A model generated the notes under the pieces. The model did not search any database, was not told the DNA's origin, and saw only the letters and a list, made by a program, of their open reading frames with translations. Source: Escherichia phage Ivi. From it: DNA of 44,890 nucleotides. Of this stretch, positions 30,675 to 33,041 are shown in pieces. The position numbers were made by a program, and so were the translations under genes. Location of the stretch: sequence record PV841871.1. One strand, 5' to 3'. Numbering within the stretch: position 1 is the first letter of the stretch; the number at the start of each line of letters is the position of its first letter.

Positions 30675-32095
30675 TTCTTACCTCGTCTCTTCATGTAATT
30701 AAGCAATTCTTCCTGCACCGATTTCTTCTCGTCTGTACGCGCGGCAACAACCTCGTCCAGCGTGTCTTTAGCAACGATGTGATAAAGGAACACCGGTCGT
30801 TCGTGGCCTGCCTGTTTCTGGCGGACCGGACCTATACGCTCCACGACCTGCAAATAGTGCTCAAGGTTCCAGCCTTGCGAGATGAACGCCAGATGATGGC
30901 CGCCGTCCTGTAAATTCAAACCATGGCCGGCTGATGCGGGATGCACGCACAAAATCTCGATTTCACCGCGGTTCCACGCTTCCATCTGCTTATTACCCTT
31001 GGCCCCTTTGGCAAACGCCTGGGCTTGTGGGAATCTCTTAAGGATGCGCTCCAGTTCGTGCTTGAACTGATAGGCCACCAGCAACGGCGCACCTTGTAAC
31101 TCCTCAACAATTGACTCAAGCGCATCCAGTTTCGTGTCGTGCACTTTCTCCCAGTCTTTCGTTGCTTCTCCGTCCGGCCCTGACACATATACGGCACCAG
31201 ATGCAATCTGCAAACACTTTGACGTCTTTGCCGCAGCGTTAGCCGCTTCAACTTCTCCGCTCTCCAGTTCCGCGAATAACTTTTCCTCCATGTCTATGTA
31301 CGCCTGACGCGCTTTCTTCGGCAGGTCGATTTCAACCGGAACAATAATCGGCGCTTCACAACCGAACCACTCGGCGGCGTCAATCGTGAGACTGATGTCT
31401 TTCATCTTCTGGTGAATCTCAGTATCTGCGCCAGGGCGTGCATGATACTCACGCGCCATAGCCGATTTGCCTTTCTGTACCGAGTTAAACCATCGGTCGG
31501 TGAATGCCGTGTATGAAGAACCGAGGCGCTCGCCCGCGTCGATAAACCAGTTCTGACCCCACAAGTCTTTTAGGCCGTTCGGTGACGGCGTTCCCGTCAG
31601 GTTAATAAAACGCTTAACCTTTCCAAATGCCACCTTACTGAGCGCCTTCGCCCTCTTACTACCACCTGAACGGCTGCGGAATGATTTCAGTTTCGTGCTC
31701 TCATCGGCAACGATAACCGTAAAAGGCCAGTCGTCTTTGCCGTAATAGTCAATAAGCCACTCGATAACTTCGTAGTTTGTACAGACCACATTAGCGTCTG
31801 ACTCCAGCGCCGCGATGCGGCGCTTCTCCGAACCAGTTGCATCGACGACACTCAGACACGGGAATCGCCATTTCTCTTGTTCTGCAGGCCATGTGCCTGA
31901 CGCGACACGTAACGGGGCCAGGATTAAGACGCGGTCGTCATCATTAAGTTGGCCGTTGCGGAACAGTCTGTTTAACGCCCACAGTACGCTGCCAGTCTTC
32001 CCTGCGCCCATGCTTGCCCATATGTTACAGCGATGGTGCCACAACATGAACGAAGTCATTAGCTTCTGGTATTCTCGCCTTTGAAACTTACTCAT
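30671..32095 (-). CDS. SNF2-family helicase
   Basis: Walker A SMGAGKTGS, motif II IVADEST, motif III LTGTPSPNGL. Confidence 0.8.
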   Translation of the reverse strand: MSKFQRREYQKLMTSFMLWHHRCNIWASMGAGKTGSVLWALNRLFRNGQLNDDDRVLILAPLRVASGTWPAEQEKWRFPCLSVVDATGSEKRRIAALESDANVVCTNYEVIEWLIDYYGKDDWPFTVIVADESTKLKSFRSRSGGSKRAKALSKVAFGKVKRFINLTGTPSPNGLKDLWGQNWFIDAGERLGSSYTAFTDRWFNSVQKGKSAMAREYHARPGADTEIHQKMKDISLTIDAAEWFGCEAPIIVPVEIDLPKKARQAYIDMEEKLFAELESGEVEAANAAAKTSKCLQIASGAVYVSGPDGEATKDWEKVHDTKLDALESIVEELQGAPLLVAYQFKHELERILKRFPQAQAFAKGAKGNKQMEAWNRGEIEILCVHPASAGHGLNLQDGGHHLAFISQGWNLEHYLQVVERIGPVRQKQAGHERPVFLYHIVAKDTLDEVVAARTDEKKSVQEELLNYMKRRGKK

Positions 32096-33041
32096 GTACC
32101 ACCCCCATGAATGCCTTTATAAATTCAGCGGCTACTTGCGGGACGATGGCATTGCCATAACCGCGCAATCGTCCCACTCTGGCGGGTATCCCATTAGCCA
32201 GCGGGAATGTGCCGGGTTCAACTGGCCTGAATTTCCCATCCCGGCATCCGAGCCAGTCAGCATCTGACCAGAAGCTGTGGTGCGTATTGGCCGCGATATT
32301 TTCAGTCCCTGCTCCGTTGAGTAGTCCAGCCTGTCGAATGTTCTGTCTTTTCCGTCCTTGCGAATAACTGTCTCTCCGCTCCCTCTGTAATCGTTCGCTG
32401 TTGGGGACGGCCATGCCAAAAGGTACTGTGCGTGCGTCGCCAGATTGCAATTCGCATTCGGTCTGTTGAAGCGTTTTTCCGCGTAGGCTTGTGGGTCTTT
32501 CGCTCTGCTGTTGTTGTCGTCCGCAACCGCTGGCGTCGGCCAGGTTGTACGCGCCGAAGAACAGTCTGTCGCGTTTGTGCGGGGCACCGACGCTACAAGC
32601 TGGGAGTACGGCAAACCCGACGGAGTAGTCTTCTCCTTCCAGATGAGTTTGTAAATCGCACATCCACGATTTTGCAATTGCTGGTGCAACCTGTTCCCCA
32701 AAGAGGACTGGAGGGCGGCACTCGCTGATGAGGTCAAGGAATACCGGCGCGAGGTGTCTCGGGTCGAAATGTCCGAGTTGCTTTCCTGCCGCGCTAAACG
32801 GTTGGCAAGGCGGGCTTCCCGTCCAGAGAGGCGTATTTTCCGAAACTCCCGCAAGTCTGAGCGCGAGAGGCCAGCCGCCAATACCAGCGAAAAAATGACA
32901 CTGGGTGAACCCGTCGAGGTCTTCTGGCTTAACTTCTGTAATGCTTCTTTCATCTACAACTCCAAAAGGTATGTGACCCTGTTTTATTAATTCACGCAGC
33001 CACGCGGCTGCGCCTTTATCCCACTCATTGTAATAGTTCAT
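32088..33041 (-). CDS. DNA (cytosine-5)-methyltransferase
   Basis: Motif I FFAGIGGW, motif IV SPPCQPFS, motif VI FGEQV, motif VIII KRDRLFF, motif X GYGNAIVP. Confidence 0.8.
   Translation of the reverse strand: MNYYNEWDKGAAAWLRELIKQGHIPFGVVDERSITEVKPEDLDGFTQCHFFAGIGGWPLALRLAGVSENTPLWTGSPPCQPFSAAGKQLGHFDPRHLAPVFLDLISECRPPVLFGEQVAPAIAKSWMCDLQTHLEGEDYSVGFAVLPACSVGAPHKRDRLFFGAYNLADASGCGRQQQQSERPTSLRGKTLQQTECELQSGDARTVPFGMAVPNSERLQRERRDSYSQGRKRQNIRQAGLLNGAGTENIAANTHHSFWSDADWLGCRDGKFRPVEPGTFPLANGIPARVGRLRGYGNAIVPQVAAEFIKAFMGVVHE

Follow-up and report, generated by a model that had tools for sequence, protein, structure and literature searches.

A nested +1 reading frame inside an orphan C5 cytosine methyltransferase gene of Escherichia phage Ivi suggests a two-polypeptide enzyme that is widespread in phages and prophages

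The stretch of Escherichia phage Ivi DNA analyzed here (record PV841871.1; 44,890 nucleotides, referred to below as the window and numbered from its first letter) carries an open reading frame (ORF) with the motifs of a C5 cytosine methyltransferase. This ORF, which we call alpha, occupies positions 32088 to 33041 of the minus strand and encodes 317 amino acids, the coordinates including the stop codon; the list of ORFs confirmed the extent given in a first-pass annotation, which had described an orphan methyltransferase with the canonical motifs in order. A second ORF, beta (positions 32132 to 32953; 273 amino acids plus stop), had gone unnoticed. It lies wholly within alpha, on the same strand and in the +1 frame, and its stop precedes that of alpha by 15 codons. 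From the properties of the two frames and their relatives, we consider it likely that nested frames on one strand of this locus specify an orphan C5 cytosine methyltransferase made of two polypeptides. At the DNA level the region is 90 to 93% identical to that of Kagunavirus phages (Guernseyvirinae; the K1G/K1ind/Golestan group of Escherichia coli siphophages). Unless otherwise stated, all features described below are on the minus strand.

The relationship of alpha to C5 methyltransferases is far beyond chance. Alpha matched Pfam family PF00145 with an E value of 2.6e-16 (60.4 bits, cutoff 22), although only residues 74 to 167 were covered, and it matched phrog_363 ("DNA methyltransferase") with an E value of 9.6e-87. 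A phmmer search with alpha found M.HhaI, and a profile of the alpha family built from 20 diverse homologs placed alpha residues 37 to 166 on residues 4 to 174 of M.HhaI (hhalign probability of 98.4; E value of 4.6e-15). Motif I, the S-adenosylmethionine (AdoMet)-binding loop (FFAGIGGW; residues 50 to 57; 32871 to 32894), aligned with FAGLGGF of M.HhaI, and motif IV (PPCQPFS; residues 77 to 83; 32793 to 32813), which contains the catalytic cysteine C79, aligned with PCQAFS; P78, C79, and Q80 were invariant in the 20 homologs. Motif VI is the ENV-like FGEQV (residues 114 to 118, with GEQV at residues 115 to 118; 32688 to 32702). Motif VIII, HKRDRLFF (residues 155 to 162; 32556 to 32579), contains the RxR element R157-D-R159, and substitutions within it cluster at alpha codon position 3. 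Motif X is GNAIVPQ (residues 296 to 302; 32136 to 32156), in which G296, N297, and I299 are invariant. The alpha ORF is an authentic C5 cytosine methyltransferase gene, with a predicted activity of that kind, and the five motifs named by the first-pass annotation (I, IV, VI, VIII, and X) do occur in the order that it gave.

The description of the motifs as canonical holds only for those five, since motif IX is missing and motifs II and III lie ahead of motif I. A motif II-like YYNEWD (residues 3 to 8; 33018 to 33035) and a motif III-like VDERSITEV (residues 29 to 37; 32931 to 32957) are both N-terminal to motif I. Alpha residues 2 to 28 matched M.HhaI residues 36 to 60 (hhalign E value of 0.0025), the main alignment between alpha and M.HhaI contained a 35-residue gap precisely at HhaI motifs II and III, and in the match to NCBIfam TIGR00675 (score of 38.3, below the cutoff of 100.65) alpha residue 4 fell on profile position 26. 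These three observations point to a local permutation, II-III-I-IV, that departs from the canonical I-II-III-IV order and of which we know no description for C5 methyltransferases. Motif IX was absent from alpha in the alignment with M.HhaI, and a motif IX-like sequence was found only in the +1 frame. The stretch from motif VIII to motif X, which the first-pass annotation took for a short target-recognition domain (TRD), is about 135 residues long (R159 to G296), comparable to that of M.HhaI, and is a nonconserved spacer rather than a recognizable TRD. Residues 166 to 255 (32277 to 32546) are of low complexity (71% R/Q/G/S/E/D/N/T/K/P) and overlap the variable modules of beta; over these 90 residues alpha is unconserved and variable in length, yet always free of stop codons. 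Since the region is unconserved in alpha and recognition apparently resides in beta, the earlier remark appears to have mistaken a spacer for a TRD. The spacer is followed by a 40-residue module (residues 256 to 295; 32157 to 32276; SFWSDADWLGCRDGKFRPVEPGTFPLANGIPARVGRLRGY) that is conserved in the alpha frame across distant loci, with the pattern FWSDADWLGCRDGKFRPVEPG...RLRGY before motif X, and substitutions at alpha codons 256 to 270 are alpha dominant in phase. Because it has neither a motif IX nor a conserved target-recognition region, the alpha ORF alone is probably not a complete enzyme.

Beta begins at an ATG (32951 to 32953) that is preceded, 6 nucleotides upstream, by a Shine-Dalgarno (SD)-like GGAG (32960 to 32963; context CTTTTGGAGTTGTAGATGAAA). 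Its first 72 residues (32738 to 32953) form a leader that overlaps alpha motifs III, I, and IV and is free of stop codons though its sequence is unconstrained: beta codon position 2 varies there like a silent site, and the omega-like ratio is 2.0. The leader is followed by a motif that is conserved across the family and predicted to fold as a helix plus a beta-hairpin (residues 75 to 126; 32576 to 32731; SSASAALQSSLGNRLHQQLQNRGCAIYKLIWKEKTTPSGLPYSQLVASVPRT), overlapping alpha motifs VI to VIII. The variable region (residues 127 to 220; 32294 to 32575) holds two WPTP-type modules, marked by WPTP at 32531 to 32542 and WPSP at 32402 to 32413. Among relatives there are from 1 to about 10 such modules, their number and type both vary, and some relatives have a different type of module. 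The C-terminal module (residues 221 to 260; 32174 to 32293) consists of RPIRTTASGQMLTGSDAGMGNSGQ followed by LNPAHSRWLMGYPPEW (32174 to 32221), the latter resembling motif IX; it has invariant L, P, W, L, M, P, and W columns and shares nucleotides with alpha residues 250 to 290. The conserved C terminus follows the pattern R.TASG.MLTGS.AGM..GQLNPAHSRWLMGYPPEW, and its last 16 residues fit the motif IX pattern of M.HhaI (KLHPRECARVMGYPDSY). There is no GN motif in beta. In two related loci (L021 and L029) the alpha termini are nearly identical to those in the window and the middle of beta is unrelated (WATATTRSHRDSG... and FHPIMARQIMGFPPEW), the alpha spacer differing correspondingly, which suggests a cassette-like exchange of the variable region.

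Beta belongs to a large family of its own. A search of a database clustered at 90% identity returned 5141 homologs at an E value of 1e-3 or lower, and at the same threshold the conserved core of 178 residues matched 8369 representative clusters in a library clustered at 50% identity. Beta also matched phrog_1008 (E value of 1.6e-55), and in the records of phages K1ind1 to K1ind3, K1G, and K1H it is annotated as a "putative Mte8-like protein" overlapping a "C-specific methylase." Two of the homologs (P0160 and P0143) read on in frame into a further domain, of the Dam N6-adenine methyltransferase (PF05869) or DUF2800/PD-(D/E)XK nuclease type, representing either real fusions or missed stop codons; a Pfam scan of 10 of the longest homologs, in which these two fusions were seen, found no PF00145 domain in frame with beta. 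The paper on the eiAU phages describes a single larger methyltransferase ORF in some isolates.

The evolution of the nucleotide sequence suggests that both frames are, with high probability, translated. In a substitution-phase analysis of 23 related genes, variation at codons 1 to 105, 151 to 165, and 301 to 317 fell mainly at alpha codon position 3, indicating that only alpha is constrained there. At codons 106 to 150 and 271 to 300 there was little variation, and beta position 3 varied at least as much as alpha position 3, which indicates constraint on both frames. In the middle of the gene, which is rich in indels, variability was highest at beta position 3. Crude omega-like ratios agreed with the substitution phase along the gene; in the middle, the omega-like counts (1.11 for alpha versus 0.86 for beta) are weakly informative because the variable modules cannot be aligned at the nucleotide level, and for this part they were replaced by two other tests, one of similarity controlled by the third frame and one of stop avoidance.

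For the similarity test, mean bit scores against 16 distant loci were calculated for the alpha frame (A), the beta frame (B), and the third frame as a control (C). Codons 36 to 105 gave 99 bits in frame A, 24 in frame B, and 32 in frame C. Over codons 106 to 150 the corresponding values were 45, 38, and 24, and the helix-hairpin motif of beta is constrained in both frames (37.9 bits in frame B versus 23.9 in the control). Codons 271 to 300 scored 43, 39, and 28 bits. In the middle (codons 166 to 255), where frame A scored 17 bits (16.8), frame B 26, and frame C 18 (18.5), frame B was the only frame with similarity above the control. Beta is conserved beyond what alpha imposes on it in three segments, and alpha is at noise level in the middle. 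Only about 75 codons (alpha codons 106 to 150 and 271 to 300) are constrained in both frames, and the overlap is tolerable because the conserved parts of each frame lie mostly over the spacer or leader of the other.

The stop-avoidance test compared the stops observed with those expected from shuffles of synonymous codons. Over alpha motifs I to VI the beta frame contained 2 stops in the viral loci where 50 were expected, and 1 in the bacterial loci against an expectation of 73; the third frame contained 93 (86 expected) and 183 (162 expected), respectively. The converse held in the nonconserved middle, where the alpha frame contained no stops in either set (38.3 expected in the viral loci and 93 in the bacterial loci) and the third frame had 65 against 59 and 219 against 216. 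The third frame was neutral in all four tests. A frame stays open precisely in the parts where its own amino acid sequence is free to vary, which fits translation and not a by-product of composition.

These results bear on one alternative, namely, that the gene encodes a single-polypeptide orphan methyltransferase and that the nested frame is a by-product of the codon composition of alpha. Such a reading accords with the presence of the catalytic and AdoMet-binding motifs in alpha, with the practice of most annotators and RefSeq, which call only alpha, and with the lack of any Pfam or NCBIfam match for beta. It does not account for a +1 frame that is free of stops far beyond expectation next to a neutral +2 frame, for conservation in the middle of the gene that is confined to frame B while alpha is at noise, for the absence of motif IX from alpha, or for a beta family that numbers thousands of clusters and has its own phrog; variant loci described below, in which each frame keeps its motif in a separate copy, are a further point against it. 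We regard it as highly improbable.

Start signals for beta are also conserved. In many distant relatives, an AGGAG-N7-ATG lies instead about 18 nucleotides farther downstream, arising from the alpha sequence D-x-R-S-I-x-D-V. The Arg-Ser pair at this position is written AGG-AGY in 16 of 32 distinct contexts, compared with about 5.6% expected from codon usage, AGG making up only 12.6% of the Arg codons in these genes. An SD sequence and ATG are conserved in two alternative positions, and the beta frame is open up to the start.

The nesting recurs widely. A tblastn search with the beta core matched 244 phage records, including N15 gene 58, epsilon15, and phages of Rhodobacter, Xanthomonas, Burkholderia, and Pseudomonas, and among the matches listed beta nearly always lay under a methyltransferase annotation. 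The beta match was offset from the annotated start of the coding sequence by 379 nucleotides in N15, 382 in epsilon15, and 478 in RcPeripeteia, all equal to 1 modulo 3, as in the window. In about 50 loci from IMG/VR, alpha and the alpha+1 frame were both open for about 300 codons, and the longest open stretch of the alpha+2 frame was typically about 60 codons. A scan of bacteria with one genome per species yielded 440 loci, the best 80 of which were subjected to a strict test that required an intact alpha ORF with motifs IV and X and, nested within it, beta in the +1 frame. Sixty-two of the 80 passed; of the others, 5 were cut by contig ends, and most of the remaining 13 were misses of the search pattern (for example, GNAL for GNAI) or decayed copies. 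None of these best 80 of 440 loci had beta in frame with alpha, in another frame, or alone, and no beta without an overlapping alpha was seen among the viral and bacterial loci examined. Plasmids gave 29 matches, mostly phage-plasmids and Ralstonia megaplasmids, and none of the 29 had an obvious restriction-modification context. Decayed copies included one with an internal stop in beta (L045), two with a stop in alpha (L103 and L116), and two with a frameshifted alpha N terminus (L082 and L108); those of them that lie in bacterial genomes may be inactive prophage genes.

In a few loci the overlap has been partly undone. Two IMG/VR contigs (3300045988_050163 and 3300045988_074615, loci L026 and L027) carry a duplication of the doubly coded 3' segment, in which the upstream copy retains the beta sequence ...RWLMGFPIHW followed by a stop and the downstream copy retains the alpha sequence PARVARLRGYGNAIVPQV. 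Between the copies, in frame B, lies an ORF for an HNH endonuclease (PF01844; approximately positions 1500 to 2040 of the L026 locus), which represents either a homing-endonuclease insertion or an intron. Alpha is 480 residues long in these loci and open through the HNH insert of about 160 codons, so that three proteins would be specified by one stretch of DNA. In three other loci (L031, L032, and L067; approximately positions 1567 to 2926 of the locus) the segment with motifs IX and X is duplicated with a short spacer, and the beta frame extends 442 nucleotides beyond the alpha stop; this extension joins beta to a recombination endonuclease VII domain (PF02945; E value of 6.8e-25) and ends in the usual beta tail, RKSQRNSLKHS. 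In these variants the upstream copy retains motif IX of beta and the downstream copy motif X of alpha. That each copy keeps the motif of a different frame once the overlap is relaxed speaks for the importance of both products and for an alpha spacer in which almost any sequence is tolerated.

A division of this kind is known, although rare, among C5 methyltransferases. M.EcoHK31I of E. coli (YGGCCR; Lee, Kam, and Shaw, 1995) is a two-polypeptide enzyme in which alpha carries motifs I to VIII and X and beta carries motif IX, both being required for activity, and its beta polypeptide is made from internal start codons of its own (PMC2836561, PMC3404938). The split enzyme M.AquI (CYCGRG) likewise consists of two polypeptides that must assemble, with the break in the variable region (PMC3404938). 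The subunits of M.AquI are consecutive, alpha carrying motifs I to VIII and beta the distal variable region with motifs IX and X, whereas the phage locus has a nested beta and keeps motif X in alpha. A consecutive split of the M.AquI type was rejected for the phage locus, since motif X lies in alpha and beta ends without a GN motif. Of the two C5 methyltransferases known to consist of two polypeptides, the locus appears to fit the design of M.EcoHK31I, to which we liken it by the published description of that design and not by sequence. The alpha and beta polypeptides of M.EcoHK31I are 309 and 176 amino acids long, similar to the 264 to 317 residues of alpha in the Kagunavirus relatives and to the 178 residues of the phage beta core. 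Removal of the N terminus of M.EcoHK31I beta is reported to abolish its association with alpha. The two differ in that M.EcoHK31I belongs to a restriction-modification system and the phage gene is an orphan in the replication module of a lytic phage, and in that phage beta has a long leader, its start preceding the conserved core by about 75 codons.

With monomeric enzymes of the M.HhaI type (PF00145), alpha shares a homologous catalytic core (motifs I, IV, VI, and VIII) and a GN motif X; it differs from them in having motifs II and III before motif I, no motif IX, and no conserved TRD. The multispecific Bacillus phage enzymes of the SPR/phi3T type carry several tandem TRD modules with one specificity each, which may be compared with the two WPTP-type modules of beta and the 1 to about 10 in its relatives. 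The same two nested ORFs, corresponding to PHROGs 363 and 1008, are found in K1G, K1H, and K1ind1 to K1ind3 (as "C-specific methylase" and "Mte8-like protein"), in N15 as gene 58, and in epsilon15 as a cytosine methylase. The literature searched, whose coverage is partial, yielded no paper linking such phage genes to the architecture of M.EcoHK31I and no functional or specificity data for "Mte8," for Kagunavirus methyltransferases, or for the eiAU phages.

Nested frames could also be joined during translation. A ribosome that shifted by +1 into beta after motif VIII, and possibly by -1 back into alpha before motif X, would produce a single polypeptide with the segments in the canonical order, I to VIII, TRD, IX, and X, and the frame-B motif IX does lie just upstream of the frame-A motif X. 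A run of six T residues (32890 to 32895; CAT TTT TTC) sits in alpha motif I, and two database sequences, phage vB_EcoM_SHAK7693 (OR594180.1; L003) and an IMG/VR contig (L033), have seven T residues in its place; there the beta ATG is in frame with the remainder of alpha and the first 48 alpha residues are cut off. Locus L019 has a similar fusion of the beta start to alpha, and its run was not matched by the search pattern used. The T7 variants, which like the T6 run lend the frameshifting scheme some support, could reflect an error in sequencing the homopolymer, decay of the gene, or phase switching. A product of frameshifting would have no need of a beta frame that is open for about 75 codons upstream of the conserved core, up to an SD-ATG. 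The shifted ribosome would also skip the middle of alpha and residues 256 to 270, so the openness of alpha through the whole nonconserved middle and the alpha-frame constraint on residues 256 to 270 count against it. No slippery site was identified at the junctions, although no systematic search was made; beta stops 160 codons before the copy of motif X in L026 and L027; and the beta of M.EcoHK31I uses start codons of its own (PMC2836561). Programmed frameshifting is, in our judgment, very unlikely.

The two-subunit reading assigns to beta what alpha lacks. Alpha has the motifs of the large domain without motif IX, and beta has a motif IX-like element and the only region in which variable modules occur in a conserved frame. 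We think it likely, though by a slightly smaller measure than for the two-polypeptide enzyme as a whole, that beta is a subunit carrying motif IX and target recognition and is required for activity. It is also conceivable that beta is a real protein overprinted on the gene and unrelated to the methyltransferase, such as a DNA-binding or antidefense factor. Beta has no detectable homology to a curated family or a solved structure, its repeat modules (WPTPxxxD) do not resemble classical TRDs, and some of its relatives are fused to Dam or to the DUF2800 nuclease, all of which would suit an independent role. An unrelated protein would not be expected to be confined to loci with an overlapping alpha, as beta is among those examined, to resemble at its C terminus precisely the motif that alpha misses, or to be retained together with alpha in the un-overlapped variants; the beta of M.EcoHK31I, moreover, is required for methylation (PMC2836561, PMC3404938). 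This explanation is also very unlikely, if slightly less so than frameshifting.

Several points weigh against the two-subunit reading and against the assignment of functions within it. The case for the translation of beta comes entirely from sequence evolution, and the loci used for the stop-avoidance counts are not phylogenetically independent. The assignment of motif IX is a resemblance over 16 to 19 residues: the only hhalign match between the beta profile and M.HhaI was to HhaI residues 272 to 290, which are motif IX, with a nonsignificant E value of 0.18. Beta gave no Pfam or NCBIfam match even at an E value of 10 or lower over 31 members, and its profile gave only a chance match to the sequences of the PDB, so that no solved structure was reached by sequence. 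AlphaFold2 models were poor, with a mean predicted local distance difference test (pLDDT) score of 52 for beta (60 sequences), confident only at residues 75 to 125 (82 to 91), and of 36 for alpha (42 sequences), and structural support for the docking of the two chains is consequently absent. Finally, the predicted TRD of M.EcoHK31I has been placed in its alpha polypeptide and not in beta (PMC2836561, PMC3404938), whereas the corresponding region of phage alpha is an unconserved spacer and the variable modules in a conserved frame are those of beta.

In the two-polypeptide enzyme that we propose, ribosomes beginning at 33041, with the alpha ATG, would produce the large subunit of 317 residues, this start being linked to the ORF upstream by the sequence ATGA, and other initiations at the internal GGAG-N6-ATG (32953) would produce the small subunit of 273 residues from the +1 frame. 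The large subunit would contain motifs II/III, I, IV, VI, VIII, and X, with a disordered spacer in the place of a TRD. The helix-hairpin of beta is probably the element that docks on alpha, and its two WPTP-type modules are probably the target-recognition region; beta would also supply a small domain with the motif IX-like LNPAHSRWLMGYPPEW and would read the major groove of the DNA. Alpha would bind AdoMet and flip and methylate the cytosine, and the assembled enzyme would modify the phage DNA and so shield it from host restriction. Protection of phage DNA in this way is the role expected from general knowledge of phage orphan methyltransferases, and we hold it to be about evenly balanced for this locus.

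The setting of the gene is consistent with an orphan enzyme. On the minus strand, the replication cluster comprises, in order, the DNA polymerase A gene (33750 to 35990), small ORFs, a gene for a 95-residue VRR-NUC protein, a 63-residue ORF, the methyltransferase gene, and the SNF2 helicase gene (30671 to 32095). The alpha ATG overlaps the stop codon of the 63-residue ORF (ATGA; 33038 to 33041), and the alpha stop overlaps the start of the helicase gene (32088 to 32095; ATGAGTAA). Overlapping junctions on both sides of alpha suggest translational coupling along the replication operon. As the first-pass annotation had it, no restriction endonuclease is adjacent, and the window shows none elsewhere: there is none among the neighbors of alpha (the 63-residue ORF, the VRR-NUC protein, and the SNF2 helicase), nor is one annotated anywhere in the genome of the annotated relative Golestan (NC_042084.1). 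The gene shows both features by which a phage methyltransferase is recognized as an orphan, in that no cognate restriction enzyme was found and it lies among replication genes. The earlier description as an orphan C5 methyltransferase of the replication module thus stands with respect to the motifs, the missing restriction partner, and the position between the VRR-NUC and DNA polymerase genes and the SNF2 gene, and needs amendment in that alpha is improbable as a complete enzyme. Just downstream of the replication cluster, on the opposite (plus) strand, is a tailspike-like ORF of 745 residues (28089 to 30326). The ORF at the matching position in K1ind3, matched by position and not by protein comparison, is annotated as a sialidase-type tailspike, and the locus in the window may be a determinant of host range.

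Taken together, these observations suggest that the nested two-polypeptide C5 methyltransferase, a known but rare kind, follows an underannotated design that is widespread among phages and prophages. Most records of the phage homologs annotate a single frame: gene callers and RefSeq retain alpha alone in Golestan, N15, and epsilon15, and in PMG1 the ORF called is beta, so that half of the enzyme would be routinely missed or mislabeled. This has practical consequences. Cloning of alpha by itself, codon optimization, or recoding would destroy beta and, if beta is required, would yield an inactive "methyltransferase." If target recognition resides in beta, specificities inferred from alpha would be meaningless, and the swapping of modules would let phages acquire new methylation specificities quickly. 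The role expected of the enzyme, the ordinary protection of phage DNA from restriction, is unchanged.

The locus also indicates that two frames of one strand can both remain coding along about 270 codons across great evolutionary distances. More tentatively, and with a probability that we place a little short of even, the nested alpha and beta frames may represent an architecture general to a very large and ancient clade of orphan C5 methyltransferases in phages and prophages, with a permuted catalytic core, swappable WPTP modules in the +1 frame, and an alpha spacer that need only remain open. Such a clade would comprise at least 8,000 beta clusters at 50% identity across the Proteobacteria and beyond, and its spacer could hold a whole homing-endonuclease gene in the other frame. 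If this is true, these genes would rank with the largest and oldest conserved examples of same-strand dual coding that prokaryotic viruses are known to have, and annotation and the prediction of methylation specificity would systematically leave out half of the enzyme that they encode.

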